From: Candidatus Latescibacterota bacterium
GTDB taxonomy: Bacteria > Latescibacterota > UBA2968
DNA length: 64,000 nucleotides
Assembly: GCA_965208125.1 (NCBI GenBank)
Contig: OZ242320.1
Span: forward strand, 608,001 to 672,000
Direction of reading: 5' to 3'
In this document: positions 20,764 through 38,842 of the stretch, in pieces
How positions within the stretch are numbered: the first letter of the stretch is position 1
How the letters are laid out: each line of letters opens with the position of its first letter
Made by a program: the position numbers and the translations under genes
The notes under the pieces: generated by a model
Database searches by the model: none
What the model was told of the DNA's origin: nothing
Seen by the model: only the letters and a program-made list of their open reading frames with translations

Positions 20764-20800
20764 GGAAACTGCTCCTCTATGGAGTGATTGATGACATCTT

Positions 20801-20844
20801 TACTACTTGCGATCTACTACTACTTGTACTACTTGCGATCTACT
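20801..20844. repeat. Short direct repeat (TACTACTTGCGATCTACT x2, 26-bp period)
   Basis: Read directly at 20801-20818 and 20827-20844. Confidence 0.85.
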
Positions 20845-20904
20845 GCGTTTCCCCGGCGACTTCAAGCGAAAATATTGACCATCCCCCCTTTCTGCGTGAA
20901 GCCG

Positions 20905-20932
20905 GTAGTGTGCAGGCGCCCCTGCACACTAC
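20905..20932. other. Perfect 12-bp hairpin in the leader of the 18106-20763 gene
   Basis: GTAGTGTGCAGG-CGCC-CCTGCACACTAC. Confidence 0.8.
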
Positions 20933-20952
20933 TCAGGATTCTTTTAATCTAT

Positions 20953-20981
20953 ATTATAACATAAACTAACACCTGGAACAA
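20953..20981 (-). promoter_or_regulatory. Putative internal sigma70 promoter with extended -10
   Basis: Minus strand TTGTTC-17 bp-TATAAT with TGn immediately before the -10. Confidence 0.55.
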
Positions 20982-21031
20982 GAAGTTCCAACTTTTTTAG
21001 AAGGGCGCGAAAAACCGCACCCTTCCGCGAT

Positions 21032-24000
21032 CTACCACTTAATGCGCAAGCTGAATCTCAACTCGCGTGGAGAGTCCCAATAATTGAGAATATCGTTGTT
21101 TTCTGGAGACGCTAAATTCAACGCAACAATATCGGGATTGGTGGGTTCTAATGCCAAGATGCCATATTGTTGATAGCGATCCGTATTGAAATCAATCGGC
21201 AACGTACTCTCATTCTCAGGTCTAACCGAGCGGGTGTCCTGCTGGTTAAACAGATTATAGACCTCAGCTGCCAGAGTCATATTCACACCCGACGTATTGC
21301 CAAATACCTTCTCGGCATTGAGATCTGCACGCGTGTGAATTGGACCATATCTGAAGCCCTGAATACCACCCGTGCTATACGTAAACCGGGAACCCGTGTA
21401 CAGGCGATACACCAGATTGGCGCGAACATTGCCTAAAGCTCTGCCATCAAAAGGACCGTAGTTCGATGGCGTGGCAAACAAGAACGTAATCGAACCAAAG
21501 CTGCGGCGGTCGGCGGTCAGCGGGGTGCGCTCGCCAGATTCCTGGTTGTGCGCCACCGCCAGCGTGCCTTCGCCACTACCCGGATTGCCGGGATGGTTGC
21601 CAGCGCGTTCCCAGTATTCCCTGTCTGCGTCGTCGTAATGGCCCAGACTTGTCTTGGGTTCATCGGCAATAAACTGCGCGCCCTCTGACGAATAGTGAGA
21701 ATACCACGGAATCCACGACCACGCACCACCGGTGCCTGTGAAATTCACGATTCTGGTATGTTGAGTCCGCAAATAAAGATTCGCCTGGTGACCATACTGG
21801 ATGATGTAGTGATCCTCTGGCAATCCTTCACGACGCGCTTTTTCCCGCAATGACACGGGGCTCTCGACACCGGTCGTGGGATCGACATCCCAGGTGTTCC
21901 AGTAGTAACCACTGGCCACAAACTGAGAGTCGGGCCATACATCTCTGCGGTGCGCGCTGTTGCGCCCTTGATCGCCCCACTGCAGGTTGTAGCCCACATT
22001 GAACGAGAACATATTGGAAAACTTCTTGCGCAAATTGATCTCAAAACCGCGAACATCGCGCCAGTTACCCGGCCCATGGCCTTGAACACCCGTCACATAC
22101 TGGTGACCGGCTGGATCAATCCACTGTTGTGAGGCATTTCTGATCTCATTGCCCGACGCCTTGTAATAGGTCGTCAGACCGAGCACATAATCGCCCACGA
22201 AGTTCCAGTCTAAGCCCACCTCAAAAGAAGTGGTTTCTTCGGGCGGCAAATACGGAGTTCCATGTTCTGAACCCGAGTCATTGTATTCGTTGTACTGTTC
22301 GCCGGGGTCAATTATACCATTGCCATTCAGATCCCTATCCACAGCCTCATTAGACGTGAACTCGTTCTGGAACATTTGGTCGAATTGCGGGCGCTGCACA
22401 AACCGACCGTAGAAAAAGCGTATGAGGCTCTTTTCCGTAATCGGGTGCGACACGCCAACGCGGGGCTGGAACGCCTTAATCGAAGGTCCCTTGGTTGTGG
22501 GAATATAGACGGAACGCGTCATGCCATTCCAGGGTGCCTTAGCACCGTACCATGCATCGGTATCTTTGATATAGGTGTTCGGGAAGAAAATCTCGCCCCT
22601 TATGCCCGCATTCACGATCATCCCTTCAAACTCGATCTTGTCCTGAACATAAACGCCAAAATCGAGGGGATTGAGACCTACATTTTCCCCATTCGGCCAG
22701 AATGCCGTATCTTCATAGTTCTTGGAGAACCAGCGGACACGGCGATGCGTGGGACCAGTGGACCATCTTAGCTGATACCAGTTGTCGTAGCGAATTACTT
22801 CCACGCCGGCTTTCACAAAGTTTTGCTTGTTCACCTGGCTGGAAAGGTCCGCCTTAAAGCTCAACCGCTTGTATTCAAAAATACTCCAGTCGGTCGTTTC
22901 GCGATAAATCGTGTAGTATCCTGCCGCGTCCTTTGTGCTCGAAGACGTCAGATTTTCACCTACCACATAGTGAGGATTCAAGCCCATTGTGTCGCGCGTA
23001 GAAGTCGAATAGCCCAGATTCACCTCGTAAAAGGTCTTGGGAGACAGGGAATGCGTCACTGCTGCGTATAACAACGCATCTGTATCGCGGTATTGACCAC
23101 TGGGATTTACAACGTGCAAAAAGATGTTTTTGCCAAAGTCGCGCAAATTCAACCGACCGCCTTCATCTGGATTGGTAAAGCGGTTTTCAGCGCGATTATA
23201 AATCCCGCCCACGCGCAACTTCAAGTTGGGAGATGCGGCAAACGTGAGCTTTGCCGTATTGCGCGTATTCGGGGGGGTCGTCAAATTGGCATCCAAAAGT
23301 GCCGACGGCAGTCTGCGCCAATCTGTACTGGCAAAAAATGTCAGGTCCCGACTCAGTGGACCCGCAATATTGGCACTAATGCGATGTCCCATTTTGCCCG
23401 TGTAGTCCAGACGCTTATGCGCCTGCACCACATCGTTGGCACCATCGCCATTCAGGTCAGCGGGAATCTCGACCTGCTCTGCAACCCAGTCGGGATTATC
23501 CCACTTGTTGTTGCCACGGTGCATGGGCGAATCGTACACATTGGCACCCCAGTGCTTCTGCCCTGCAGGCGTGAACTGATAGTCCAGCATACCACTGTAT
23601 GCTGCGCCACCATCGCGCGTCACCATGGAAACCACACCACCCTGGGCATTGCCATACTCGGCGTTGTAACCACCCGTAATCACCTGAAGTTCCTGAACCG
23701 CACTCTTGTTCACGTTTCGCCCAATGCCCAGGCGAGAACCACTGTGGTCGGTCGTCGAAATGCGAACGCCATCCACTATGTATGCCACATGGTCGCGGTC
23801 GCCGCCGCGGATCATGATCTCATTACCATCGGCATCGATTGAAACACCAGCCTGAAGCTCGATGAACTCACCCATGTCGCGCACGATGGGCACGGCATCG
23901 AGCTCTTCGGAACTCATAATATACTTACTCGTCGTCTTATCTGGCTCAACGGGCGGACGCTCGGCAATAACCGTGATTTCACCCAATTCCAGAGCTGCCT

Positions 24001-24322
24001 CTCGAATCTGGAAATCAACCGTCGTCGTCAAGTCAGTTTGAACCCTGATGTCGGTCTGACGCTGGGCATCATAACCCACTAATGAGGCCGTCATCGAATA
24101 CGTGCCGGGATCGACGAGCAAAATGACAAAAAACCCATCGGTATCGGTGACAGCGCCGCGCTGTGTGCCATCAATGACAACATTGGCACCTGGCACGACC
24201 TCACCAGTCTGCGCGTCCCGCACTGTTCCCTGCAATTTTCCCGTTGTTGCGGCATAAGAAGTACCTGCGCCAACGAGCAAAGACAGTGCAACTATTGAGA
24301 ATGTCTTCAATAACTTATGCAT
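21032..24322 (-). CDS. TonB-dependent receptor with N-terminal carboxypeptidase-regulatory-like domain
   Basis: TGKLQGTV.D..TGE..PGANV, plug motif VQELQVITGGYNAEYGNAQGGVV, PRVGVSHPIT, YNLFN, terminal Trp; GGAGG RBS. Confidence 0.92.
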   Translation of the reverse strand: MHKLLKTFSIVALSLLVGAGTSYAATTGKLQGTVRDAQTGEVVPGANVVIDGTQRGAVTDTDGFFVILLVDPGTYSMTASLVGYDAQRQTDIRVQTDLTTTVDFQIREAALELGEITVIAERPPVEPDKTTSKYIMSSEELDAVPIVRDMGEFIELQAGVSIDADGNEIMIRGGDRDHVAYIVDGVRISTTDHSGSRLGIGRNVNKSAVQELQVITGGYNAEYGNAQGGVVSMVTRDGGAAYSGMLDYQFTPAGQKHWGANVYDSPMHRGNNKWDNPDWVAEQVEIPADLNGDGANDVVQAHKRLDYTGKMGHRISANIAGPLSRDLTFFASTDWRRLPSALLDANLTTPPNTRNTAKLTFAASPNLKLRVGGIYNRAENRFTNPDEGGRLNLRDFGKNIFLHVVNPSGQYRDTDALLYAAVTHSLSPKTFYEVNLGYSTSTRDTMGLNPHYVVGENLTSSSTKDAAGYYTIYRETTDWSIFEYKRLSFKADLSSQVNKQNFVKAGVEVIRYDNWYQLRWSTGPTHRRVRWFSKNYEDTAFWPNGENVGLNPLDFGVYVQDKIEFEGMIVNAGIRGEIFFPNTYIKDTDAWYGAKAPWNGMTRSVYIPTTKGPSIKAFQPRVGVSHPITEKSLIRFFYGRFVQRPQFDQMFQNEFTSNEAVDRDLNGNGIIDPGEQYNEYNDSGSEHGTPYLPPEETTSFEVGLDWNFVGDYVLGLTTYYKASGNEIRNASQQWIDPAGHQYVTGVQGHGPGNWRDVRGFEINLRKKFSNMFSFNVGYNLQWGDQGRNSAHRRDVWPDSQFVASGYYWNTWDVDPTTGVESPVSLREKARREGLPEDHYIIQYGHQANLYLRTQHTRIVNFTGTGGAWSWIPWYSHYSSEGAQFIADEPKTSLGHYDDADREYWERAGNHPGNPGSGEGTLAVAHNQESGERTPLTADRRSFGSITFLFATPSNYGPFDGRALGNVRANLVYRLYTGSRFTYSTGGIQGFRYGPIHTRADLNAEKVFGNTSGVNMTLAAEVYNLFNQQDTRSVRPENESTLPIDFNTDRYQQYGILALEPTNPDIVALNLASPENNDILNYWDSPRELRFSLRIKW

Positions 24323-24337
24323 CAACTTTTACCTCCT

Positions 24338-25111
24338 TTAGTCCCAAAAATAAAACTTGAACCCGGCACTCAGATCAAACATCTGAAGCGGGAAAGCCTT
24401 GTTCAGGCCCCACGCATCGTAAGGGCGGAGTTCGCCGAGAATAAAATGATACCGCGCACGCACATCCAGCGCAATCGTCTGCGTCAAATGCGCTTCCAAC
24501 CCCAATCCCAAAACTGCGGTCACGGCTGTACGCGTATCTTCCTGGCGGTCCATCACCACCTGGGGCAATATATCGCCCTGAGCATCCACATGCGTCGCAT
24601 CTATACCGCTGGCATCGGTCGGGCTCTGCCCCGGCCACACGATATTTTCCGCTACGGTCTTGTGATCGTACAAACCGCCACCCGCAACGATATAGGGCGA
24701 AAAACTCCCCTCATCCATTGAGCGCTCCGCATTGAAAAACCACAACCCGGACATCAACACGCTATTAAAGCGATTCGTATATGCACTATTCGGGTTGATA
24801 TCTTTGCTGCTGTATTGCTTGGCTGTCAAAGCCTTGGGGGACCAGGTAAATTCACCGTTCTCCAGGACGCCACCATCCATATTGGCGTGGTGATACTCGG
24901 CTTCAATAGTCAGACGAGAGCTACTCACGCGACTGGCAGTAATCCCCCATTTGTTTACGCCACCGCCAAATCGATCACCAAAGGTGAACACGGGATTCGT
25001 ATAGCTGACGAAACCGCCCAAACCCCATTTGCCGGCAACCTGAGCCGAAGACATGCTTGCCGAAGCCAAAACACCTGCGACGACAAAACCTAAAACTTTA
25101 AACCATCTCAA
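24338..25111 (-). CDS. Small outer-membrane beta-barrel (OmpA/OmpW-like membrane domain)
   Basis: TTG start with AAGGAGG; signal peptide; SPYIVAGGGLY, LGLGLE, LSAGFKFYF. Confidence 0.75.
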   Translation of the reverse strand: MRWFKVLGFVVAGVLASASMSSAQVAGKWGLGGFVSYTNPVFTFGDRFGGGVNKWGITASRVSSSRLTIEAEYHHANMDGGVLENGEFTWSPKALTAKQYSSKDINPNSAYTNRFNSVLMSGLWFFNAERSMDEGSFSPYIVAGGGLYDHKTVAENIVWPGQSPTDASGIDATHVDAQGDILPQVVMDRQEDTRTAVTAVLGLGLEAHLTQTIALDVRARYHFILGELRPYDAWGLNKAFPLQMFDLSAGFKFYFWD

Positions 25112-25350
25112 AGTGCTACCTCCTTTCGCAAACTGCGAAAAATGAACGACTTAACAACTTTACTATATGCAACGCAAAACAAATCTATCTCTATTCATCA
25201 CCTCCTTTTGTTTGTTATCAAATCTGAAACATACAATACAAAAATAGCCATCAAGACATAACAGATTGAAACTTTGTTTCAAAAATATTTCCAAAAATTC
25301 AACTTAATGTAAAAAAAATATATATGATATGCAACTCATTTTTTTAGTAG

Positions 25351-26559
25351 TTAGCGACCACTTACATTTTTCTCTAACCGCAACCTCTTTGCCTCTGTGC
25401 GGATCTTATCCATCTCCATCTTCATCCGCACAATGCCCTCCCAATGCGTATAATCTGGCGAATGGTGATACGCCGCCTTAAATGTAGTCGCGTGATAAAA
25501 CTTGAACAACCTGAAAAACGCCTGCTCAATCTCCGATGTATTTTCGTACAACTGCTGCCCACCCAGTTCAAAAGCGTGTCCAACCACTGGATTGGCCGGA
25601 CGGTCTTCGGGCATGGGATCCAGCGCGTTTTCATCGTACAATGCCTTAATCACCGCATAAGACTCCGCAACCAGCGCGTCTGCCTCGCGCTTAATCGCAT
25701 CTGCGCGCTCCAGACTCTCGCGAGAAAATCGATTGGAATGGCACGGCGCACACACCTGCAACATCGCATTTCGATTCGCTTCAAACTCCTCTTTGGTCAA
25801 ACGTTTCATCGCCAGATGCGGCAAAAAATCCTCCTCGAGCACTGCCCCCGTAAACACCGCACCCAACCCGATATTTGCCACATGCCCGTGATCGCCATTG
25901 GGCATGTGGCACGTCACGCAACTCGGCGACTTCTCGGCATCTCTATCCGCATAATACAAAACCCCGTGAATACTCGTCTTATACGCCTCCATCACCGGAT
26001 GGTCCGGACCGCCGTGACAAACGGCACACGCCTCTGGCTCTCGCGCAAGCGCCGCGCTAAATTCATGACTCGGATGACAGGTGTTGCACCCCCCCACGCT
26101 GCCATCGGCAAACCGCGCGCCAATGCTGTGGCACCCCATACACCCCTCTTCTTGCATCGCGCGCGACTGCGCCAAAAAACGCGCATCCGACAACGCGGCC
26201 AATTCCGCATCGGCATGTCCGCTCTCTGCAAATGCCTCGACCTCTTCTGCGTGGCATTTACCACACATACCAGCCGATACCTGTCCCCGAACAGCAAAAA
26301 CCGTCTCGTGGTTTTCACCGTGACAATCCGCACACCCCACATTGGCTCGAAAATGGGCACTCTCGCGCCACTGTTTATCCATGCCCGGATCGATATTCCG
26401 ATGGCACCCTTCGCACGACTGGTCACTCTGAATACGCAACAAAAAACCCGGATGTGCAACAAACTGAACCGCCTCCTCCGGCTGCAACACGTAAAACACA
26501 CCCCAGACGCAACCCAGAGCCAGCACACCAACGCCAACAATTTTCATCCAGAGCTTCAC
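25351..26559 (-). CDS. HAO-family octaheme cytochrome c
   Basis: Eight CxxCH (CEGCH, CADCH, CGKCH, CMGCH, CNTCH, CAVCH, CVTCH, CAPCH), GPDHP..EAY..S.HG, H.SPDYTHWEG; N-terminal anchor. Confidence 0.85.
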   Translation of the reverse strand: MKLWMKIVGVGVLALGCVWGVFYVLQPEEAVQFVAHPGFLLRIQSDQSCEGCHRNIDPGMDKQWRESAHFRANVGCADCHGENHETVFAVRGQVSAGMCGKCHAEEVEAFAESGHADAELAALSDARFLAQSRAMQEEGCMGCHSIGARFADGSVGGCNTCHPSHEFSAALAREPEACAVCHGGPDHPVMEAYKTSIHGVLYYADRDAEKSPSCVTCHMPNGDHGHVANIGLGAVFTGAVLEEDFLPHLAMKRLTKEEFEANRNAMLQVCAPCHSNRFSRESLERADAIKREADALVAESYAVIKALYDENALDPMPEDRPANPVVGHAFELGGQQLYENTSEIEQAFFRLFKFYHATTFKAAYHHSPDYTHWEGIVRMKMEMDKIRTEAKRLRLEKNVSGR

Positions 26560-29315
26560 AATTCACGCCCCCCCAATCCTCGCAACAAATCGCGCGCCTG
26601 CACATTGCCCGGCTCGCGCGCAATCACACGCCGCAAAACCGCAATCGCACTATCTCGCTGCCCGCTTATGGCATAAGCCTGTCCCATAAAAAACTCCAAC
26701 CCCTGCGCTTCTGGCTCCAGCACCCACGCCTGCCGATACACAGACAGCGCACCTTCTAAATCGCCGCGCTCCTGTAAAACCGTACCCAACACCGTAAGCG
26801 CGGGCACATAAAAAGGATCGACAATCAATGCATCCAGCAGGTGGGATTCCGCTGCCTCCAAATCGCCCAGATCAGCGCGAATAAGCCCCTGCATCGCATA
26901 CACATCAGCGCGATTGGCATGATATTTTTTCGCAACCTCAAAATGCGGCAACGCATCTGCGAGCGCGCCCTGCACATAGACGCGGTGCCCAGCGGCAAAA
27001 GCCGAATCCGACTTTGCAATCATCACATCCCGCGCCCGCCCGCTCAACCCAAATAATCCCGTACCCGCATCCTCCATTTCCAACGCCCTGCGGTATGCCG
27101 CGCGTGCCAATGCCCAATCGCCCGACAGCGCGTGTACAGTCCCTTTTTCCACCCAATCGCCTATCGGCATCTCATCCCAGTCATAATCATCTCGCACCTC
27201 GCCATCCCCAGCCGAAAACGCCAACAACGCGAGTTGTCGAATCGCCGGTTTGTATCCCGGCGCAACCGCAAGTGCGCGGCGATAGGCTTCAATAGCACCT
27301 GCGCGATCCCCACTGCCCCATCGCGCATTGCCCACAGCAGTATGCAAAACGGGCGAACCATCGCGCACATCGTCAAAAGTGGCATCTGCATAGCGCCCGT
27401 GGTGCAATAGCAATGCACCTGTGCGCAACCGGGAAATCAAATCGCTCTTTCCATTCAGCAACTCCCTCATCACCTCAAAACGCTTCTGTTTTCCCTCCAA
27501 TCGCGCCAGATCTGTCGCGGTCTCCGGATGCCGGGGGTCTAACTTTGCCACAATCTCAAATTCTCGCCTCGCATCTTCAAAAAATCCCTGTGCCTCATAC
27601 ACCTGTCCCAAACTCTCGTGAAAGCCCGGATCGTCGCCCTGCACGCCATACACCACATCGCGATGCTCCTCAAGCGCCTTGCGAAACGCATCGCCCACGG
27701 CAGAACCATCTGGCAAATAGCCAATATCCATCAGCGCGAACGGCGCTTGCACCCGCACAATACGCGCCGAATCGGACAACGCATCCAAAAGCGCGGGCAA
27801 ACCGCGCACATCGCCCAAACGCCCCAGCGAAATCGCCGCTTTCATCCGCACCATCGCATGTGAATCACCCATCGCCTCAACCAGCGCTGGCACCGCACGC
27901 GCATCCCCCAAACCGCCCAGCAAAGACGCAGCCGTTGCGCGCCACACCGCACTCTCGCGCCCATCGTTTACCAGCTTCATCAGCGACGTTGCACCACCGC
28001 CCTTTTGCCCATCGGCAATCGCCGTTGTACGCGCCACAATCTCGTCCTGATAATCGCCATACCACTGCTTTGCCCACGACGAAGCCCACTGCGGGGACTT
28101 ATCGCCGTGACACTGATTGCACGCATTGGGCACGCCATTGACCACCGTATTTTCCGGCGCAGGAGACGCAATGCGGTGATCCGTCAGATTTTCCCCCGTC
28201 ACATAGTGATACGGCATGTGACATTGCACGCATTGATTGCCCACACTGCCCGCGCGGTGATGCCCATGCGCGACCGGATCGGCTGCGATATCACCATGAC
28301 ACGTCTCGCACAGCTCCACGCCATTTCGATCCGCCACCAGATCGACATCGCGCGCTGTTCCGTGCGCATCGTGACACGTCGTACACGTCAACTCGCCCTG
28401 GATATAACACGCACTCATCAAATGCAATGCCGCGGGATACAAATAAACTCGGGGCTGTCCATCGGGATAGAAGATCGCCGCGTCATCTGGCAACACAAGA
28501 GAATAATAATCGTAAAAATTCTCCCCCGGCAAATACCCGGTTGCCACAATCTCCTTGGCAGCATGGCACTGTGCACACACCTCAACAGACCGCTCCTTAT
28601 CCAGCGTCCGCAATGCCAACAAATGCAGTGGTGCACCGACCTGCCCGCGCGTCTCATCGTGTTTGCCCGACGGCCCATGGCACGCCTCGCAATCAATACT
28701 CAGACTCCCCACAGTTGTGCGATAAGTATGGGTAGGCACATCGTAATGCTTTTGCACCCGGCTGGCATGGCAATCAAAACAGTGAAAATTCCAGGTGCGC
28801 CCCGCATTCGTCCAATAATAATAATCTTCTCTCGCCAGAGGCCGCGACTGTTCCACCACACCTCCTTCTTGTGCATCGACCCAATCATTTGTCGCACCAT
28901 CGTGATACAGGGGCAACACCTGCCATCGCCCATCGGGAAAAGCCGTCAAATAAGCCTGATGCTGTCGCTTGCCAATCGCGTAATCCACGCGATATGTCCC
29001 CACTCGCCCATCCTCATCCTCAGTCTCCATATAATACGCACCACCCCTGCGCAACATACGCGAACGCACCCCGCCATACACATGGGACACATTGTCAAAA
29101 TCGCCCACAATCGTCGAATCACCCGGCACAGTCATAGCGACACTGTGCAAACTCTGTCGCCACTCGGCATACTTATCGGTATGGCAGATCGCGCACCGTT
29201 CCAACCCCGTAAACCCCGGCTCAGAAGCACGCACCAAATTCGGCACCTCGCGTTCTCGACTGCACGACGCGAATACCAGAATCATCCATAAAATGTGAAA
29301 TTTTCCGCACCGCAT
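26556..29315 (-). CDS. Multiheme (8x CxxCH, c554-like) cytochrome with HEAT and TPR repeats, probable lipoprotein
   Basis: CAICH, CFDCH, CEACH, CAQCH, CTTCH, CETCH, CVQCH, CNQCH; HEAT repeats (VR..AA..LG.LGD); C-terminal TPRs; LVFASC lipobox-like; start uncertain. Confidence 0.85.
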   Translation of the reverse strand: MRCGKFHILWMILVFASCSREREVPNLVRASEPGFTGLERCAICHTDKYAEWRQSLHSVAMTVPGDSTIVGDFDNVSHVYGGVRSRMLRRGGAYYMETEDEDGRVGTYRVDYAIGKRQHQAYLTAFPDGRWQVLPLYHDGATNDWVDAQEGGVVEQSRPLAREDYYYWTNAGRTWNFHCFDCHASRVQKHYDVPTHTYRTTVGSLSIDCEACHGPSGKHDETRGQVGAPLHLLALRTLDKERSVEVCAQCHAAKEIVATGYLPGENFYDYYSLVLPDDAAIFYPDGQPRVYLYPAALHLMSACYIQGELTCTTCHDAHGTARDVDLVADRNGVELCETCHGDIAADPVAHGHHRAGSVGNQCVQCHMPYHYVTGENLTDHRIASPAPENTVVNGVPNACNQCHGDKSPQWASSWAKQWYGDYQDEIVARTTAIADGQKGGGATSLMKLVNDGRESAVWRATAASLLGGLGDARAVPALVEAMGDSHAMVRMKAAISLGRLGDVRGLPALLDALSDSARIVRVQAPFALMDIGYLPDGSAVGDAFRKALEEHRDVVYGVQGDDPGFHESLGQVYEAQGFFEDARREFEIVAKLDPRHPETATDLARLEGKQKRFEVMRELLNGKSDLISRLRTGALLLHHGRYADATFDDVRDGSPVLHTAVGNARWGSGDRAGAIEAYRRALAVAPGYKPAIRQLALLAFSAGDGEVRDDYDWDEMPIGDWVEKGTVHALSGDWALARAAYRRALEMEDAGTGLFGLSGRARDVMIAKSDSAFAAGHRVYVQGALADALPHFEVAKKYHANRADVYAMQGLIRADLGDLEAAESHLLDALIVDPFYVPALTVLGTVLQERGDLEGALSVYRQAWVLEPEAQGLEFFMGQAYAISGQRDSAIAVLRRVIAREPGNVQARDLLRGLGGREL

Positions 29316-29408
29316 AACATGTCCTGTTAATGCGCTAATTAAAATATACAAACCGTCATCCCTACAAGAGCAACGGCCACCAATGCGATGACAATAGCAG
29401 TGTCGCGA

Positions 29409-30278
29409 CTAACGCGCCTGAACCTCTCCCCTCGCACACCGAAACCCAATGTGGGCAAATATTTCATAGGTATCAAAATCGTCGCGCGACATAGCCTGTT
29501 CTTCCATAATTAAAACCGTACTCCGCACAAATACGCGGATACTGGGTTGTGGTGAAAACCAGCTCCCGCCGCGCAACGTGCGATCTGGCCCATCTTCCAT
29601 ACCTGAATTTTGCAAATTCACCGGATTGTGCCTGGGACTATTTGCGTAATACGTATGCTGATATTCATCCCGCGTCCACTCCCACACATTACCCGCCATA
29701 TCCATCGCGCCATAAGGACTTGCACCATCCGGATAGCTACCCACAGGCATGGGACCCGAAATAGAATTGAAATTGCACAGCGATGTATTCGCAGGCTCAT
29801 TGCCCCAGGGGAACACGCGCCCATCCGTGCCTGCAGCGGCCAACTCCCATTGCGCTTCGCTCGGCAATTGCAAACCCGCCCACTGACAATAATCCCGCGC
29901 CTGAGACCACAAAACTCCCACCGCTGGCTGACTGGGTTGGTCAAATCCCTCTACTCGAAAGTACTGCGGAGGTTCACTTCCCGTGGCCTCCACATAAGCC
30001 AAATACTGCGCATTGGTCACCTCGTATTTATCGATATAAAATGCGTCGAGCATCACCTCGTGTGGCGGGCGCTCATTGGTAGGGCCATCGCTCGAACCCA
30101 TCGTAAAGGTGCTGACCGGAACAAAAACTTGCACATGCTCTGTGCCCGCAGGCGTGGTCACAACAGATTCTTCAATCACATATTCTGGATCCGTCACTTT
30201 GCCACAAGCCATGGTCAATACAAGTCCCAAAACGCCGAATCGATAAATCGTTTTTGGTATCATGACGTACCCCATCAT
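29409..30278 (-). CDS. FGE/SUMF1-family (NirV/PvdO-like) lipoprotein
   Basis: FTMGS, P.HEV.L..FYIDKYEVTN, LPSEAQWE.AA, DMAGNVWEW, RGGSW, IGFRCA; LTMAC lipobox; ATG overlaps the YcaO stop. Confidence 0.88.
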   Translation of the reverse strand: MMGYVMIPKTIYRFGVLGLVLTMACGKVTDPEYVIEESVVTTPAGTEHVQVFVPVSTFTMGSSDGPTNERPPHEVMLDAFYIDKYEVTNAQYLAYVEATGSEPPQYFRVEGFDQPSQPAVGVLWSQARDYCQWAGLQLPSEAQWELAAAGTDGRVFPWGNEPANTSLCNFNSISGPMPVGSYPDGASPYGAMDMAGNVWEWTRDEYQHTYYANSPRHNPVNLQNSGMEDGPDRTLRGGSWFSPQPSIRVFVRSTVLIMEEQAMSRDDFDTYEIFAHIGFRCARGEVQAR

Positions 30279-31285
30279 GTCCAAACAATATAATTGCCCG
30301 AATCCACCATAATGCGATGCACATACGTCTCGATCATCGCGTGGTTCCGCTCGTATTCTGAAGTCTTTAAACTGAAAGGCCGCAACACTGGAATTTGCAT
30401 CTCTGGATCTGTCCAATCTTGCACATAGACCGAAGAATTCATGCCGCTCAACACCACCTGAATATCGGTTATCAAATCATCCGTAAAATGATTGGGCAAA
30501 TCCCACAGCGCAATCTCGGCATTAAAAATCTGCAAATCAGATACAAACCGCGTCTTGTGACTCTGAACAGTCTCATTAAACGCCCGCTGCAACGCCACGC
30601 GCCCATCCAAATGCGTACACGTACGCACCAGAGGTCCCAAATCTTTGGGACACACCACCGCGTGAACCGTCGTCACCTTCTCATTCTCCCCCGGCACGGC
30701 CACAGCCAGCATCTTCTCTGCGACGCGAGGAGCAAAATCCGTCAAATTTGGATCGATAAATTGCCGGTGTTCCAATCCGGGCCAGTAAAAATGCCTCCCC
30801 ACATCCAGATGCTCGTGCATCTCCAACAAACCGTGAAACACGCACTCCAGCACAGTATTGCCCGCCGAAACGCCATTTGCCGAATCATTCAAATGCGGCA
30901 CATCCGACGCCTTCATATCGGTCGGCACGAGTTCGACATCAGAAGTCAACTCATAAATCGGAGTCTCTCGCCCGCTCGCCAGCGCGTCAAAAAACGAAAT
31001 GCGCTCGACCGCCTCTGCCATTGCCCCTGCCAGCACCTGCTGTTTGGAAAGCCCTTTGCCCATCGTGCGAAGCGCAATACCCTCCATCAGCGGCCCTTCG
31101 TATTTGCGAAACAGCGCCGACTGCACGTAATCCGTATAACAATCGGCAATCCACACCGTATTGTAAAACCGCCGCGCGCGCGTTTGAAATCGGCACTTTT
31201 TGGACAGCGCCTCCCCAAACCGCACAATGGTCTCCTCAAACGGAACCGTGCGATCGGCAATAACGATATGATGCGACTCACTCAT
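30275..31285 (-). CDS. YcaO-family ATP-dependent amide-activating enzyme (compact)
   Basis: GKG......AGAMAEAVER, NGVSAGNT..E...HGLLE..EH, H.D..VALQRAFNE..Q, D.T.P...IPV. Confidence 0.85.
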   Translation of the reverse strand: MSESHHIVIADRTVPFEETIVRFGEALSKKCRFQTRARRFYNTVWIADCYTDYVQSALFRKYEGPLMEGIALRTMGKGLSKQQVLAGAMAEAVERISFFDALASGRETPIYELTSDVELVPTDMKASDVPHLNDSANGVSAGNTVLECVFHGLLEMHEHLDVGRHFYWPGLEHRQFIDPNLTDFAPRVAEKMLAVAVPGENEKVTTVHAVVCPKDLGPLVRTCTHLDGRVALQRAFNETVQSHKTRFVSDLQIFNAEIALWDLPNHFTDDLITDIQVVLSGMNSSVYVQDWTDPEMQIPVLRPFSLKTSEYERNHAMIETYVHRIMVDSGNYIVWT

Positions 31286-32415
31286 TGCGCCCGTGCCCGA
31301 TTCATATCTTCAACCGCCTCGGCAAATCGTCCCATTTGCCGAAACGTCTCCGCGCGAAGTTCTCGCGCCCATCCATTTTCGGGATCGAGATCCAACGCCC
31401 GCGTAAAATCTGAAACCGCTGCCTCAAACTGCCCCAGCATCCGTCGGGACTCCCCGCGATTTGCCCAAACCCACGCGTCTCCGCCATCCAGCATCACCGC
31501 CCGATCAAAATCGACCAGCGACGCCTCGGGATCATTTTCCATCCGCAACGCAACGCCTCGCCCCATAAGCGCCCACAAATGATCGGGAAAAATCTCCAGC
31601 GCCTGTGTAAAATCGCGTATTGCTTCGGCACTTCGCCCCAATTGCCGCAACATATCACCCCGCGCGGCCAACAAATCCGGGTCGTCAGGTACGATAACGA
31701 GTGCGCGGTCAAAATCCAAAAGCGCGGCCTCCAATTGATCGCACTCTCGCAGCACCTCGCCCCGTCCGATCAACGCGCCCAGATGATCGGGCATCGCCTT
31801 CAGCGCCTCCCCAAACATCTCCATCGCGGCCTCAGCCTCACCAGCCTGTCGATAGACCTCCGCCCGTCCGGCAAACGCATCTGGATGCCCATTGCCCACA
31901 GCAATCGCCCGGTCAAAATCGCTCGCCGCCGCATCGCACTGCCCCAACTGCAACAACACGTGCCCGCGGCTGATCAGCGCGCCGAAATAATCTGCATCCA
32001 ACGCCAAAACCCGATTGAGATCCCCCAATGCCTCTTCAAACCGCCCCATCTCGCGCAGAGTCTCCCCCCGGCTGGCAAGTGCCTGCGTATTTTCCGGATC
32101 GAGCGCAACAGCCTTTCCAAAGCTATCTATCGCCGCATCAAACTGCCCCATCAACCCGCAGGCAATCGCGCGATTGCTCCACACCCAGGGATCATCTGGA
32201 GCCAGAGCGATTGCGCGGTCAAAATCTGCAACAGCCGCATCAAATCTCCCCAATTGCCCATAAGTAATCCCGCGCTGAACAAACACAACGGGATCGCAAT
32301 CTCGGATCGCAACAGCCGCATCAAAATCCGCAACAGCCGCTTTCAGATCGCCGCCATCGCGGTGCGCAATAGCGCGCTGAACCACAGCGTCAAAGTCATT
32401 TATAGATAGAGACAT
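31282..32415 (-). CDS. All-TPR protein (about 11 repeats)
   Basis: 34-aa periodic RG......G..EAA..DFDRA..L.P; stop overlaps the YcaO ATG. Confidence 0.9.
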   Translation of the reverse strand: MSLSINDFDAVVQRAIAHRDGGDLKAAVADFDAAVAIRDCDPVVFVQRGITYGQLGRFDAAVADFDRAIALAPDDPWVWSNRAIACGLMGQFDAAIDSFGKAVALDPENTQALASRGETLREMGRFEEALGDLNRVLALDADYFGALISRGHVLLQLGQCDAAASDFDRAIAVGNGHPDAFAGRAEVYRQAGEAEAAMEMFGEALKAMPDHLGALIGRGEVLRECDQLEAALLDFDRALVIVPDDPDLLAARGDMLRQLGRSAEAIRDFTQALEIFPDHLWALMGRGVALRMENDPEASLVDFDRAVMLDGGDAWVWANRGESRRMLGQFEAAVSDFTRALDLDPENGWARELRAETFRQMGRFAEAVEDMNRARAQ

Positions 32416-32533
32416 AGAAGAAAATAATGGGAACCACAAAACACCCGAAACGTCTCCACAATGTAGATAAACCAAACCCCAAAATCAAGCGCAAACCCCG
32501 TGACATTTTGCACGCGATTTAGTATATTACAGC

Positions 32534-32614
32534 GGTGAGAGGTAAGCGGTAAGAGGTAAGATGACCGCCCTACCCCTCTCACGTCTCACTTCTCACCGCC
32601 TCTTAACGTCTCAC
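32534..32614. repeat. Heptamer tandem repeats in inverted arrangement
   Basis: GGTGAGA GGTAAGC GGTAAGA GGTAAGA followed by (C/G/T)TCTCAC repeats. Confidence 0.65.
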
Positions 32615-32630
32615 CTTATGGAGGAACACC

Positions 32631-33941
32631 ATGAAACATTTGCAAATGCGTATTTTCTCTCTCGCCCTATTTCTGTGCTTATGCACAACAGCTTTTGCCC
32701 AACCTGGAGTGGGTGAAAAAGTAGGTGAATTTCAACTCCAGGCCACCGATGGCAGGTTTTACGGCGTCAATCATTCGAACAACACGGTATCCGTCCTCTT
32801 TTTTGTCGGCTACAACTGAGGGACTTGCATAGGGGCGGGTCCCGCCTTTGAACAAAATATCCACCAGCGCAACAAAGACAAAACCGGCGTACAGATCCTC
32901 ACACTGGACAGATATGACGGCAACCGCGCACAGGCAACATCCTATCTGACACAATCCAGCGTCACAACACCGCTGCTCACAAGTGCCTCTGGCGTCTCCA
33001 GGAACCTCGGCACCCGAAACGAAGATATCCTCGTCGTTGACCAGGAAGGCATCTTGCGCCTCAGGACCACTGCAATCGCCAGTGGCTCTCATGATCTGAT
33101 CAACGCACAAATCGACGCTCTTCTCAACAAAACGCCCGTTATCACCCTGTTCCCGCGAGAGCTTTACTTCGGCACAACCCTTGAAGTGGGGCAATCCAAA
33201 ACTATAGAATTTAAGATCGAAAATACTGGTGCAGGTCCCCTCGAAATCACCGGATACACGGCTCCTACAGGCATCACAATGGAGCCATCCTCACTGACCA
33301 TAGCCCCCGGCGAAAGCAAAACCGTACAAATCACCCTGACACCAACACAGGCCGGGACATTCTCGGGTAAAATCACCCTAAAACACGGCGAACAAAGTGT
33401 TGGCACCCTGGAAATCCCCTTTGCCAACCTCACCATCGAAGCGCCCCAACTCCCGGTCATTTCACTGGTTCAGGAAAATTTGAGCCTGGATGAAATCGAA
33501 GTGGGTAAAGACTTCACAACAACATTCGCCATCACAAATACTGGTACAGGTCCGCTCACCATCACAGACATCCAATCCAACATCGCGGGCATTGCATTTT
33601 CAGAAACCCAATTAACAGTGCCACCCGGCCAATCTCAGAATATCACAGTGACTTTCAATCCGCCAGCCGAAGGTCCCATCACCGGCACCATCGACATAAT
33701 CTCAGACGACCCGGAAAAAGCCTCAATCAGCCTGACCATCACCGGCTCGGCCATCTTCATCCCCGCTGATCCACGCACCGACTTCGACGGTTCGCGCACC
33801 ATTGACTTCTCGGACTTCCTCTTGTTCGTAAGTGCCTTTGGCACGGCCAATACGACCTTCGATCTCGACGGATCCGGCACTGTTGACTTCCCCGATTTTC
33901 TCATCTTTGTCGCAAACTTTGGGAAAACAATCAATTCCTGA
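32631..33941 (+). CDS. Probable secreted selenoprotein: redoxin (UxxC) + two Ig-like (ASH/choice-of-anchor D) domains + dockerin-like EF-hand pair
   Basis: ORFs 32631-32819 and 33054-33941 share a frame; reading through TGA 32817 gives VLFFVGYN-U-GTC...VQILTLD...ILVVDQEGILR (redoxin fold); DFDGSRTIDFSDFLLFVSAFG and DLDGSGTVDFPDFLIFVANFG at the C-terminus; GGAGG RBS. Confidence 0.85.
32825..32855 (+). promoter_or_regulatory. Bacterial SECIS-like stem-loop
   Basis: AGGGGCGG-GUC-CCGCCUUU at +12..+30 after the UGA; GGU is codon +7, the same spacing as in the E. coli fdhF SECIS as I recall it. Confidence 0.7.
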
Positions 33942-33945
33942 AAAA

Positions 33946-33971
33946 CGGGCGGGTTTAAAACCCGCCCCTAC
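33946..33971. repeat. GTAG-type REP-like palindrome
   Basis: CGGGCGGGTTT-A-AAACCCGCCC-CTAC. Confidence 0.7.
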
Positions 33972-34025
33972 ATCATTATATATAACCTCCTGCGAGATCA
34001 TCGGTGTTAATCCGTGTTGCTTTCC

Positions 34026-34715
34026 ATGTCCCACCGCCAAACACTCATCAACGCATTCAAACGCATCCTCGAAATAGCGGATCACAACCATCTCTATTTG
34101 CCCTTTCAACGCGACAGCAAATTGCGGGCAGAACACTTTCCCGGCGCAGGGTCTAAAATCGGGCGAAAAAAACTCATCGACGCATATCTCTGTGAATTTG
34201 GCGGCACCAACCCCGATGAAAAATTGCTCCAACACGCCACCTATCCCTGGATTCACGGGTACGACGCCAGCCTCACGCATATTCTCGACGACCTTCGCAA
34301 GCATCAAAAGAAAGCACCCGAAGAACTTTCTCTTGACCGAAAGCGCGAACTCGAAAAAAAATTTACCCGCACGGGTGCCGAAGAAATCTCTGCCTTCTGG
34401 AGCGTATATGCCGCCGCCAGCCACAGCTATCGCAAAAGCGTCATAGAAATGCTCGCCCGCGTCGCCCCCCCCGAAGCAGCCCCTCCGACCATACAGCCCA
34501 CAACGCGCGATTCCTCTCAAATCGAACCCGCCACACAGTCGGGATATGCCTTGATGGGCGCGCTTATCTTCTTTGTCCCTACCCTTATATTTACTATAAT
34601 ACAATACTGGCGACTTCCACACGAAAGCCACTATATCGCTCTATCAATCGCCGGATTTTTTGGGATAGTCACACTCATCTTCCTCATCGACTACTTGCGT
34701 AAACGCAACACCTGA
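34026..34715 (+). CDS. Hypothetical protein with two C-terminal TM helices
   Basis: Codon style matches neighbours; two hydrophobic segments at the end; no family recognised. Confidence 0.65.
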   Translation: MSHRQTLINAFKRILEIADHNHLYLPFQRDSKLRAEHFPGAGSKIGRKKLIDAYLCEFGGTNPDEKLLQHATYPWIHGYDASLTHILDDLRKHQKKAPEELSLDRKRELEKKFTRTGAEEISAFWSVYAAASHSYRKSVIEMLARVAPPEAAPPTIQPTTRDSSQIEPATQSGYALMGALIFFVPTLIFTIIQYWRLPHESHYIALSIAGFFGIVTLIFLIDYLRKRNT

Positions 34716-34720
34716 TCACA

Positions 34721-36535
34721 ATGAAACGCCCTCTCGTCATCGCACTCTTTCTCGCCCTCCCACTTCGCCTCTGGGCAAATCCCCTCCAAACAGGTGCTGA
34801 AGAGGTTCCATTCAGTATCGGCGACACCCTCAATGATTTCGCCCTTGCCGACCTCAATGGCTCGCCCGTTACCCTCAGTGATTTATCTCAGAACCGCGCA
34901 CTCGTCATCATCTTCAGTTCCGTCGTCTGCCCTGCCTCGCTGAAATACGACATACACCGCACACAACTTCACGAACAATATGCCCCCAAAGGCGTACACT
35001 TGATCTCTGTAAATGCCAACTTTAACGAAACGGACAGAGACATCAAAGAACACTACGCCCAGAACCCCGTACCCTTCGATGTCCTGCGCGACCCGCACAA
35101 TAAACTCGCCGATCACCTCGGCGCGACCCACACCCCCCATGCCTTTCTCTTTGACGCCCAGCGCCGCCTGCGCTACAAGGGCGAAATCGACAACGGCTGG
35201 GGCATCCCCGAAGACACGACCTCGCGCGGTTTATGGGATGCCCTCGATGCACTGCTCGCCAACCGCGAAATTGTCAACACCAACCTGCCCAGTTTTGGCT
35301 GTGAAATCAGACGCATGCCCCGGCCAACAACTGTCGCGAACACCTCTATCCCAACATTTTATCGCGACATCCTGCCCCTGCTCCAAAACCGCTGTCAGAA
35401 CTGTCATCGCCCCGGCGGCATCGGGCGCGTACCCTTTTTCGACTACACAGAAGTACTCGCCTGGGCCTATCAGATGCGCGACTCCATCGAAGCCCGCATC
35501 ATGCCGCCCTGGAAAGCACGCCCCGAATACGGCGACTTCAAAAATTCCCGCAGACTCACAAATACCGAAATTCACACCTTCGCGCAATGGGTCAACAACG
35601 GCATGCCAGAGGGCAATCCCTCCAACCAACCCCAACCCATTGCATTTTCCAAAAGCTGGACCCTGGGCACACCCGACCTGACCCTCGAACCCGAAGCACC
35701 CTATCCACTCGAAGCTGTAGGGCGCGATGAATACCGCTGCTTTGTCTTGCCCACAAAACAGGACACGAGCAACTACGTATCGGCCATTGAAGTCCTGCCC
35801 GGAGAACGCGAAGTCGTCCACCACGTCAGCGTGTACATCGACATCTCTGGCAAAGCGAGCCTGCAACAGGAAAATTCGCCCTCGCCGGGATACCCATGCT
35901 TTGGCGGCATTGGCGTGCCCATCTACGAATCTCTGGGCGGTTGGGCACCCGGCAACACCCCCTTTGTCCTTCCAGATGGCACGGGCCGCGATTTACCGCC
36001 CAACAGCGACATCATCCTTCAGATCCACTATCACAAAATTGGTCGCGCCGTAAAAGATCATTCTCGACTGGGCATCTACTTTGCCAAAAAACCCGTACAA
36101 AAACAGCTCAGAGAAGAAGTCATCAACAGCCGCTTGCTCTTCATTCCACCCAACATCAAACGACACAGAGTAACCGGAGCACTCACCATCACCCGCGACC
36201 AGCACCTGCTCGGCATCTTGCCCCACATGCACCTGCTCGGCACAGAAATGAAAATAACCGCAACCTATCCCGACGGCACGCAACAACCCTTAATATGGGT
36301 CAAACCCTGGGACTTTAACTGGCAAGAAACCTACGTGTACAAAATACCCATCGCACTCCCGCGCGGCACACGCATCGCGCTCGAAGCCTTTTACGACAAC
36401 TCTGCCGACAATCCCCGAAATCCCAACAATCCCCCCAGGCTGGTGCGCTGGGGCGAAAAATCAACCGACGAAATGTGTACTGCATTTCTCTATGTCACGC
36501 ACGATGATGAAAACTTAACAACAGGTAAGAGGTGA
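34721..36535 (+). CDS. Exported redoxin + c-heme + copper type II ascorbate-dependent monooxygenase-like fusion
   Basis: Signal peptide; CPAS redoxin with ATHTP and FGC; CQNCH; VVHH, QIHYH, PHMH, WDFNWQ, DEMC. Confidence 0.82.
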   Translation: MKRPLVIALFLALPLRLWANPLQTGAEEVPFSIGDTLNDFALADLNGSPVTLSDLSQNRALVIIFSSVVCPASLKYDIHRTQLHEQYAPKGVHLISVNANFNETDRDIKEHYAQNPVPFDVLRDPHNKLADHLGATHTPHAFLFDAQRRLRYKGEIDNGWGIPEDTTSRGLWDALDALLANREIVNTNLPSFGCEIRRMPRPTTVANTSIPTFYRDILPLLQNRCQNCHRPGGIGRVPFFDYTEVLAWAYQMRDSIEARIMPPWKARPEYGDFKNSRRLTNTEIHTFAQWVNNGMPEGNPSNQPQPIAFSKSWTLGTPDLTLEPEAPYPLEAVGRDEYRCFVLPTKQDTSNYVSAIEVLPGEREVVHHVSVYIDISGKASLQQENSPSPGYPCFGGIGVPIYESLGGWAPGNTPFVLPDGTGRDLPPNSDIILQIHYHKIGRAVKDHSRLGIYFAKKPVQKQLREEVINSRLLFIPPNIKRHRVTGALTITRDQHLLGILPHMHLLGTEMKITATYPDGTQQPLIWVKPWDFNWQETYVYKIPIALPRGTRIALEAFYDNSADNPRNPNNPPRLVRWGEKSTDEMCTAFLYVTHDDENLTTGKR

Positions 36536-36536
36536 C

Positions 36537-38132: not shown

Positions 38133-38842
38133 ACCTGCTCAAAAAATGTGGTGCCGAATTTATCGGCGCATTTGCCATCGTCTTTGGCGGATGTGGTGCC
38201 GTCGCCATCAACCAGCTATCCGAAGGCGCCATCACCCATGTGGGCATTGCAACATCCTTTGGCCTCATCGTCATGACAATGGTTTACGCCACCGGGCACA
38301 TCTCGGGCGCGCACTTCAATCCCGCCGTCACCACCGCCTTTGCCTGCACCCGTCACTTTCCCAAACGCGAAATCCTGCCCTACATCGCAGCCCAATGCCT
38401 CGGAGCCATCGCCGCCAGCGGCATTCACCTGTGGTCTCTTACGCCCATCTTAAAATCAAAACACCCACAGCAGACCCTCAACCTGGGTGTCACACAACCG
38501 ATGGACAATCTTTTTACCACAGCTTTTATCTGGGAATTCTTACTCACCTTCTTCTTAATGCTCGTCATCATGGCCGTTGCCACAGACTATCGCGCCACGG
38601 GTCAAGCCGCCGGCCTGGCCATCGGCGGCACCATCTGGTTTGAAGCTATGTTTGCCGGTCCGCTATGCGGAGCCTCCATGAATCCAGCGCGCAGCCTTGG
38701 CCCCGCTCTGGCCGCTGGTGATTGGACCCATTTTCCCGCTTACGTATTCGGCCCCATTCTCGGCGCAACTGCAGGCGCGTTTTTTTACGAATTCATCCGC
38801 TGCCATTCCGAACCCGGCACCGATGTCAAAGGTTGTTGTTAA
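38129..38842 (+). CDS. MIP-family aquaporin (AqpS-like, probable arsenite channel)
   Basis: SGAHFNPAVT and GASMNPARS; C-terminal GCC; adjacent to arsC. Confidence 0.9.
   Translation: MNLLKKCGAEFIGAFAIVFGGCGAVAINQLSEGAITHVGIATSFGLIVMTMVYATGHISGAHFNPAVTTAFACTRHFPKREILPYIAAQCLGAIAASGIHLWSLTPILKSKHPQQTLNLGVTQPMDNLFTTAFIWEFLLTFFLMLVIMAVATDYRATGQAAGLAIGGTIWFEAMFAGPLCGASMNPARSLGPALAAGDWTHFPAYVFGPILGATAGAFFYEFIRCHSEPGTDVKGCC

Follow-up and report, generated by a model that had tools for sequence, protein, structure and literature searches.

What does a YcaO protein do among genes for envelope proteins and cytochromes, with its usual partners out of view? The question is raised by a run of genes in a 64,000-nucleotide stretch of DNA (contig OZ242320.1, positions 608,001 to 672,000; hereafter the window) from an uncultured Latescibacterota bacterium, whose genome is a single contig of 5.75 Mb and 96% complete. 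An earlier note on this DNA had proposed that five of the genes, encoding a tetratricopeptide repeat (TPR) protein, a YcaO protein, a lipoprotein resembling formylglycine-generating enzyme (FGE) and two octahaem cytochromes, constitute a new YcaO-multihaem system. We found that the linkage of TPR, YcaO and FGE-like genes holds across related genomes, but that the two cytochromes are not constant members. The constant set consists of the TPR protein, the YcaO, the FGE-like lipoprotein and a 229-amino-acid (aa) membrane protein, which occur together in 26-27 of 168 Latescibacterota genomes. The genes on which the argument turns are as follows.

31282-32415, minus strand: all-TPR protein of 377 aa without signal peptide (Pfam TPR_1, 213.6 bits)
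30275-31285, minus strand: YcaO of 336 aa, minimal, divergent and cytoplasmic (PF02624, 55.8 bits; cut-off 25.7)
29409-30278, minus strand: FGE-fold lipoprotein of 289 aa (PF03781, 166.1 bits)
26556-29315, minus strand: MHC931, an octahaem lipoprotein cytochrome with HEAT and TPR repeats (HEAT_2, 53.4 bits; TPR_2, 83.7 bits)
25351-26559, minus strand: octahaem cytochrome of the hydroxylamine oxidoreductase (HAO) family, 402 aa (PF13447, 81.0 bits, cut-off 21.9; Protein Data Bank (PDB) entry 4n4j, 115.8 bits)
32631-33941, plus strand: selenoprotein of 436 aa, exported; its gene diverges from the TPR gene and has a TGA in frame at 32817-32819
34026-34715, plus strand: membrane protein of 229 aa and of no known family, with two transmembrane helices and the same phyletic pattern as the YcaO

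The layout described earlier was recovered in full. The minus strand of 25351-32415 carries five open reading frames (ORFs), all in the same orientation, and the domain calls, made with Pfam and NCBIfam on the window proteins, agreed with those claimed. Re-reading of the letters returned three start/stop overlaps on the minus strand: ATGA at 31285-31282 (TPR/YcaO), ATGA at 30278-30275 (YcaO/FGE-like) and GTGA at 26559-26556 (MHC931/HAO). Each cytochrome contains exactly eight CxxCH motifs, 16 in total, as had been counted before. The two plus-strand genes were absent from the earlier note; they stand beside the TPR-YcaO pair in 24 of the 24 loci that reach both. A scan of 24000-34000 for promoters and terminators gave counts not above those of shuffled sequences, and the hairpin in the gap between the FGE-like and cytochrome genes was weak.

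To place the pair in context, 33 distinct YcaO loci were compared (24 from genomes and 10 from metagenomes, L033 being dropped as a duplicate of L021). Neighbourhoods were counted by tblastn with the window proteins, using only loci with sufficient sequence reach, and phyletic counts were taken from whole-genome searches of the 168 Latescibacterota genomes. The TPR gene lay directly upstream of YcaO in all 31 loci with upstream sequence, and the overlap between the two recurs in related loci (TPR end at 10004, YcaO start at 10001). The earlier note is supported in that TPR and YcaO are a fixed gene pair with coupled translation. The TPR protein has a conserved start, MSLS[IL]NDF, and its orthologue is single-copy in 26 of the 168 genomes, every one of them YcaO-positive; the sole YcaO-positive genome in which it was missed has a contig edge there. 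Complex prediction for YcaO and TPR remained below the mark in both runs, was made without controls, and speaks neither for nor against binding.

YcaO itself was present in 27 of the 168 genomes, all within one GTDB family (26 of 30 genomes, plus the window's own), and in 0 of 138 genomes of other families. Locus L021, recorded as Gemmatimonadetes, proved identical to a contig in a genome of the YcaO-bearing family. Sequencing runs containing near-identical DNA were mostly sponge metagenomes (shares below 0.5), and the clade with the TPR-YcaO pair is one family of sponge-associated Latescibacterota.

The companions follow this pattern closely. FGE-like orthologues scoring at least 250 bits were found in exactly the 27 YcaO-positive genomes, with paralogues elsewhere reaching at most 210 bits, and the gene lies within 4 kb of YcaO in 29 of 30 informative loci, being absent in L014. 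The membrane-protein gene occurs in 27 of the 168 genomes, 26 of them shared with YcaO, and the two mismatched genomes are 82% and 88% complete. It is adjacent in all 24 informative loci and always lies within 4.3 kb of YcaO, even where the cytochromes have moved. Gene order varies across genera (the membrane-protein gene is inverted, and the FGE-like and cytochrome genes are swapped) while adjacency is kept.

The membrane protein comprises a cytoplasmic N-domain, a proline-rich linker, hydrophobic segments at residues 174-192 and 203-221, and a basic C-terminus. Because of the two hydrophobic segments and the basic C-terminus, we read its topology as N-in. It had no Pfam or NCBIfam match and no usable match in the protein atlas; its 58 homologues are all hypothetical proteins, none with a Pfam domain and none from outside the clade.

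We next consider whether the YcaO is a working enzyme. It is isolated in sequence: its PF02624 score of 55.8 bits compares with 163-312 bits for the typical YcaOs found among the nearest relatives. A word-indexed search returned 27 clusters, each at least 58% identical to the window protein. When a profile of the YcaO was run against 1.84 billion representative proteins, 183 matches had E ≤ 0.001 and only three had E ≤ 1e-30; these three were one full-length cluster and two fragments, and the next full-length protein scored 69.3 bits. A protein atlas search returned YcaO clusters only. Scores with the curated NCBIfam models were far below the equivalog cut-offs (TIGR03266, 37 against 365 bits; NF040716, 16.4 against 700; TIGR03604, TOMM_cyclo_SagD, 15.1 against 219), and by these models the protein is a member of no curated YcaO subfamily.

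The fold is that of a YcaO. The AlphaFold2 model (pTM 0.75, mean pLDDT 66.4) is well defined at residues 81-165 and 271-310. When it was compared with the PDB by Foldseek, 39 of the 500 matches counted had E ≤ 0.001, and all matches listed to rank 41 were YcaO structures (query-normalised TM-scores of 0.40-0.58), headed by 4q85 at E 8e-8. Target-normalised TM-scores were highest for the archaeal thioamide YcaOs 6ci7, 6cib and 6pe3 (0.51-0.53), and 6pe3 was also the best PDB match by sequence, at 31.4 bits.

The ATP motif of YcaO proteins is Sx6-7Ex3Qx3ExxER (Dunbar 2014, as quoted in PMC7774982). The corresponding positions here are S140-x6-E147-x3-H151-x3-E155-xx-E158-H159, with five of seven retained and two changed. 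One of the changes, from Gln to His at 151, is also present in the active enzyme MJ1094. In E. coli YcaO the aligned counterparts of E91 and E94 are E75 and E78, and R234 and E238 align with the LRAVTE segment of MusD. The YcaOs of the clade show no variation at any of the four motif glutamates or at N143, R234 and E238. Functional roles are presumed for the residues at positions 87, 91, 94 and 159.

The gene is under strong purifying selection. In comparison with locus L013, dN/dS was 0.095 for YcaO, the lowest of the four core genes (TPR 0.125, FGE-like 0.125, membrane protein 0.218), and identity between genera was 59-67% for YcaO as against 32-46% for its neighbours. Because the fold is retained, the motif is mostly kept, the constraint is strong and identity between genera exceeds that of the neighbouring proteins, the YcaO is probably an enzyme with a working active site, as predicted from sequence and model. 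As a separate observation, its N-terminus contains 0-3 copies of a short repeat, approximately FNH[YD]GTS[IT]V, after residue 6 (window 31264-31275; also L003, L004, L008-L012 and L022), and a metatranscriptome contig has a 49-nucleotide insert at the same site.

The usual partners of YcaO enzymes were not detected, in agreement with the earlier note. The window's genome encodes a single YcaO and no TfuA (PF07812), although the control, M. acetivorans, was matched. The best genome match to the E1-like model cyclo_dehyd_2 (TIGR03882) reached 28.1 bits, below the cut-off of 36.9, and no such domain occurs in the cluster. Of 14 small ORFs (18-110 aa) outside the genes, none was conserved in 11 more distant loci, shorter ORFs and other starts lying outside the scan; matches to them occurred only in the close relatives L013-L015. 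The Pfam scan revealed no protease or exporter genes among those of the cluster. A profile search covering all lengths returned no fused or longer form of this YcaO, and TPR was carried by none of the ten longer relatives scanned.

These results bear on whether the YcaO could serve a pathway for a ribosomally synthesised and post-translationally modified peptide (RiPP) whose precursor, and perhaps a dehydrogenase, is encoded elsewhere in the genome. The genome does contain a SagB-type dehydrogenase (TIGR03605, 126.9 bits), coupled to a 534-aa protein, and sponge Latescibacterota are reported to be rich in biosynthetic clusters (PMC9426513). The dehydrogenase is, however, 992 kb from YcaO, and the same model matches nine of 14 control genomes. 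Neither an E1-like partner nor one of the RiPP recognition element (RRE) type accompanies the YcaO, and, as set out above, the cluster has neither a conserved small ORF nor a protease or transporter gene. The score with the SagD model is minimal, and the C-terminal consensus, ...NYIDWE, has no proline; a proline-rich C-terminal motif is presumably a mark of azoline-forming YcaOs. We consider a RiPP pathway most improbable. As a partner of the YcaO, the dehydrogenase gene at C1:1630828 was itself rejected, its neighbours being an NHL protein, the 534-aa protein and enolase-like enzymes. It lies directly 3' of the gene for the 534-aa protein, which belongs to no family (G000:C1:1628986-1631331; L046 3987-6332).

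We propose that the TPR protein and YcaO form a lineage-specific, ATP-dependent backbone modifier, in which the TPR protein would recruit a protein substrate and YcaO would most likely act as a thioamidase. This is our leading reading, held tentatively and at somewhat less than an even chance; the catalysis, the chemistry, the substrate and the role of the TPR protein are all parts that we infer. The core would be a cytoplasmic enzyme of two proteins, in which the minimal YcaO would activate a backbone amide with ATP and the all-TPR protein would perform in trans the role of the fused TPR domain of E. coli-type YcaOs, namely oligomerisation, substrate capture or both. The substrate would most likely be a protein, not a small RiPP precursor, because no conserved small ORF, TfuA, E1-like protein, protease or exporter was found. 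Two points make thioamidation the most likely chemistry: the closest relatives that have been characterised are compact, partner-less YcaOs of the McrA type, and the hallmarks of azoline formation are absent. The target or docking site may be the membrane protein, or else an envelope protein before its export; we would rank the N-domain of the membrane protein first, followed by the FGE-like pre-protein and then by the pre-proteins of the MHC family.

Several findings weigh against this proposal. The match to PF02624 is partial, covering residues 119-246 (model positions 92-234 of 325), and confidence in the AlphaFold2 model is middling, residues 36-78 and 239-256 being ill-defined. At 159, where the ATP motif ends, the whole clade has His for Arg, a change peculiar to it, and Gly 87, where E. 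coli YcaO has Ser 71, is likewise invariant. The analysis identified no gene for sulfur delivery. Since all genomes belong to one family, few independent events underlie the co-occurrence counts. Lastly, 26 of 29 informative loci have a cytochrome of the MHC family no further than 5 kb from YcaO (the exceptions being L013, L014 and L017), and orthologues of both MHC931 and HAO exist somewhere in all 27 YcaO-bearing genomes; for these two reasons a functional tie to the cytochromes retains some likelihood.

The altered motif could mean that the protein modifies nothing and is instead an ATP- or nucleotide-binding scaffold or regulator, acting with the TPR and membrane proteins in, for example, export or assembly of envelope proteins. 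The invariant His at the motif end, the Gly in place of the Ser of the first motif, the partial Pfam match and NCBIfam scores far under every equivalog cut-off would all suit such a role. The invariance of all four motif glutamates, N143, R234 and E238, the very strong purifying selection, the retained fold and the occurrence of the same Gln-to-His change in active MJ1094 argue for an enzyme, and we regard a non-modifying scaffold as improbable.

The narrow phyletic base bears on a different alternative, that the YcaO modifies a housekeeping protein encoded elsewhere and that its location among envelope and redox genes is an accident of history in one family. The genomes are all close kin, hence conserved synteny is weak evidence, and the cluster has no evident substrate. 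Moreover, YcaOs that target proteins need not adjoin the substrate gene, and no TfuA lies near any uL16-modifying YcaO according to PMC13063428. However, the genes stay adjacent despite inversion of the membrane-protein gene and the swap of FGE-like and cytochrome genes, and the TPR, FGE-like and membrane proteins match the narrow phyletic pattern of YcaO. A wider distribution would also be expected of an enzyme with such a target than presence in 0 of 138 genomes of other families. A housekeeping substrate appears quite unlikely to us.

The proximity of the cytochromes raises a further alternative, in which the TPR, YcaO and FGE-like proteins would be dedicated to maturation of multihaem cytochromes: YcaO would modify the apocytochrome before export, and the FGE-like protein would complete the process in the periplasm. 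Besides the cytochrome counts given above, in which the MHC-family gene lies downstream of YcaO in either order with the FGE-like gene, this is favoured by three genomes of the same family without YcaO (G066, G070 and G071), which also lack MHC931 and HAO, and by a contig from an RNA library that spans the FGE/MHC931 junction. As to the co-occurrence check suggested by the earlier note, the joint presence of YcaO and both cytochromes was upheld in 27 of 27 genomes, but adjacency was broken in three of 29 loci.

The behaviour of the individual genes does not fit such a dedicated pathway well, nor the earlier claim that the two octahaem genes are fixed parts of the system. MHC931 lies 0.67 Mb from YcaO in G082, 0.35 Mb in G087, 1.1 Mb in G091 and 4.3 Mb in G085, where another paralogue stands beside YcaO. 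HAO accompanies MHC931 in the relocated pairs of G082, G085 and G087 but not in G091, a genome in which the FGE-like gene itself has been relocated together with the paralogue MHC_B. Of 23 informative loci, 17 have HAO no more than about 8 kb from YcaO, and the other six lack it in the neighbourhood. MHC homologues also occur in families f3, f4 and f14, all of which lack this YcaO, and none of three such loci compared (f3, f14) had an FGE gene near the MHC homologue.

A maximum-likelihood tree of 27 cytochrome domains, from which 11 near-identical rows of the window's own clade were omitted, placed MHC931 in a clade of its own with 100/100 support, apart from the MHC_B groups, which are the cytochromes beside YcaO in other genera. 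MHC931 grouped (97/82) with paralogues located away from YcaO and with homologues from families without such a YcaO. The window's genome has no MHC_B orthologue, as three MHC_B queries matched only MHC931 and one other paralogue, at 36-40% identity. From the tree, the relocated pairs and the absence of MHC_B here, we therefore reconstruct an ancestral order of TPR, YcaO and then FGE-like and MHC_B genes, behind which MHC931-HAO docked in some lineages; MHC_B was later lost in the window's clade. The neighbour conserved across genera is thus lost here, yet YcaO is intact and constrained. Taken with the relocations, this makes a dedicated cytochrome-maturation pathway unlikely in our judgement.

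MHC931, whose signal peptide ending in ...VFASC we read as carrying a lipobox, and HAO are probably a pair in their own right, reducing nitrite or hydroxylamine. The HAO-type protein has an N-terminal membrane anchor, and its best match of known structure is Kuenenia HAO (4n4j, 115.8 bits); 6h5l scores 101.1 bits. The alignment with 4n4j covers the chain as far as residue 438 of 500 and the query as far as residue 394 of 402, and the last eight query residues contain no Tyr; the cross-linking Tyr of 4n4j lies, we assume, beyond the region where the window protein ends. HAOs without the Tyr cross-link are reductases, according to PMC8042395. Since the protein ends before the region of that Tyr, and such HAOs are reductases, it is probably of the reductive type, and the pair would be a reducing one. 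Within our proposal MHC931-HAO would be a separate pair that in this clade lies downstream of the YcaO genes, probably on the same transcript. In a number of loci (L039, L040, L041, L021 and L035), paralogues of MHC931 stand beside genes for an FG-GAP/ASPIC (CRTAC1-type) propeller and TPR proteins. One close relative has about 0.9 kb of additional DNA between the FGE-like and cytochrome genes (L002 11862-12792).

Expression data were available as contigs of four metatranscriptome libraries from relatives 88-99% alike, which cover nearly the whole stretch. Single contigs of one RNA library bridge the TPR/YcaO (30582-32435), YcaO/FGE (29674-30542) and FGE/MHC931 (27145-29684) junctions. As contigs, these data have no usable depth, starts or ends. 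The contig bridging the last of these junctions is weak evidence against a transcript break between the FGE-like and cytochrome genes. That the five genes are read together in the window's clade has only this weak indication, because a contig does not establish one continuous transcript and DNA may be present in RNA libraries.

The FGE-like lipoprotein was expected by the earlier note to take part in periplasmic redox maturation. Its signal peptide, ending in ...LTMAC, we read as carrying a lipobox. The protein matches the true FGEs 6muj and 2q17 at about 86 bits, with RGGSWFS where FGEs have RGGSYLC, so that the first catalytic Cys is replaced by Ser. The downstream segment PQPSIRVFVRS also contains no Cys; as the alignment extends only to the first Cys, the position of the second was assessed by eye. 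With Ser in place of the first catalytic Cys, redox maturation through an FGE-type reaction is unlikely. For the same reason, service to the sulfatase encoded at 43247-44704 was rejected as a role for this gene.

In an extended, two-compartment form of the proposal, the TPR protein would hold an unfolded envelope pre-protein, or the cytoplasmic domain of the membrane protein, at the membrane, YcaO would install a backbone thioamide there, and the FGE-like lipoprotein would recognise or further process the site after export, creating a new cofactor-like site for the neighbouring multihaem redox proteins. In a selenium-using organism, a selenoamide in place of the thioamide is conceivable. We judge this two-compartment route to be decidedly unlikely; if true, it would give the first example of a YcaO modifying an exported protein in bacteria.

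The plus-strand gene at 32631-33941 is a conserved selenoprotein, as judged from its sequence. It encodes a signal peptide, a thioredoxin-fold domain with the motif U-G-T-C, two DUF1573/ASH immunoglobulin-like domains and a dockerin-like end. The TGA at 32817-32819 falls in N-U-G-T-C with conserved coding sequence on both sides, and each of the 24 other loci with sequence at this site has the same TGA. The genome has the selenocysteine machinery: SelA (493.6 bits), a SelB wing domain (78.1 bits) beside SelA, and tRNA-SeC with anticodon tca. Hairpins could be drawn 3-14 nucleotides past the UGA in eight of eight sequences, with z-scores from -2.28 to +1.57, and RNAalifold gave five pairs without compensatory change. 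The gene stands beside TPR-YcaO in all 27 informative loci, and homologues without the other cluster genes occur in genomes that lack YcaO. Stop-to-stop ORF calling shortens it to 33054-33941. The annotation of the locus is corrected on two counts: the HAO-type and octahaem cytochromes are not parts of the system, and the operon's neighbour encodes a selenoprotein, which ORF callers split into two pieces. L021 has a second, paralogous gene (approximately 5009-5857) immediately upstream of the first, and its in-frame TGA falls in the same thioredoxin-like motif (GHD*AVC).

Further genes follow the membrane-protein gene on the plus strand.

34721-36535, plus strand: AhpC/TSA (ResA-like) thiol-disulfide oxidoreductase domain fused to a copper type II monooxygenase (PHM/DBH-like) domain
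36537-38132, plus strand: TPR protein
38120-38842, plus strand: aquaporin

These genes (34721-38842) are kept beside the cluster in nearer genera and were not found in g5-type loci. Behind HAO, the minus strand of 18106-25111 encodes a small outer-membrane beta-barrel, a 1097-aa receptor of the TonB-dependent type with CarboxypepD_reg, and an 885-aa protein of no family. GC skew on the plus strand is strongly and steadily negative (-0.15 to -0.31) over most of 10001-58000.

Among known systems, the HAO-type cytochrome can be set beside the Kuenenia HAOr kustc0458 (6h5l) and the epsilonproteobacterial HAO, reductive HAOs without the Tyr cross-link, with which it shares eight CxxCH motifs and sequence of the HAO family; it also ends ahead of the region in which we assume the cross-linking Tyr to lie. 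It differs from these reductive HAOs in being shorter (402 aa), in its N-terminal membrane anchor, and in having an octahaem-HEAT-TPR lipoprotein for a partner and not a dihaem protein. The FGE-like protein, for its part, resembles PvdO (5hha) and PorK/GldK (9mzu), which are non-catalytic or non-FGE members of the FGE-sulfatase fold, as a periplasmic (lipo)protein with an FGE fold and no active-site Cys at the aligned position; its scores with these are nevertheless only 44-53 bits, lower than with the true FGEs.

With the azoline YcaOs (LynD, TruD, McbD and SagD), the window protein shares the YcaO fold and the glutamates for Mg and ATP. Unlike them, it has no partner or fusion of the E1-like or Ocin-ThiF kind and neither a precursor peptide nor an adjacent dehydrogenase, and TIGR03604 gives 15.1 bits.

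The archaeal YcaOs that modify a glycine of McrA (MJ1094, 6peu as well as 6pe3; M. kandleri 6ci7 and 6cib) are closer. They too are compact and stand alone (360-385 aa) and have His at the motif Gln, and they act on the backbone of a folded protein without TfuA; in M. jannaschii the McrA thioglycine is made without it (PMC5589413). The window protein, in contrast, has a bacterial host, an obligate TPR partner, His for Arg at the motif end, and a TIGR03266 score of 37 bits for a cut-off of 365. That it is like them in size and fold, and likewise partner-less, bears on its possible mode of action and not on membership.

E. coli YcaO (4q84-4q86) and the YcaO-TPR fusion DVU2210 of Desulfovibrio vulgaris likewise combine a YcaO domain with TPR repeats. 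E. coli YcaO thioamidates the ribosomal protein uL16 with a TPR domain of 150 residues and without TfuA (PMC13063428), and, as here, a TfuA or E1-like partner is absent (PMC13063428, PMC7774982). The protein substrate is established there, whereas here it is one that we would predict. In E. coli the TPR domain is C-terminal; here the TPR is a separate, upstream protein of 377 aa. The window protein reaches only 16.4 bits with NF040716 (cut-off 700), and its sequence profile reaches 4q84 at no better than E 0.014-0.03. It is also confined to one Latescibacterota family and linked to envelope genes.

The arrangement was not described in the literature searched for YcaO with multiheme, tetratricopeptide, Latescibacter or formylglycine, supplements being outside the search; its new features are the stand-alone TPR partner, the companion with an FGE fold and the envelope context. 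To our knowledge, YcaO enzymes came until recently almost only from peptide natural products, and the established protein substrates are McrA and uL16 (since 2026). Because this YcaO is isolated in sequence, has a stand-alone TPR partner and none of the usual helpers, and keeps a small, fixed set of companions, the clade is a good place to seek a third YcaO protein substrate, and the small companion set gives a short, testable list of candidates.

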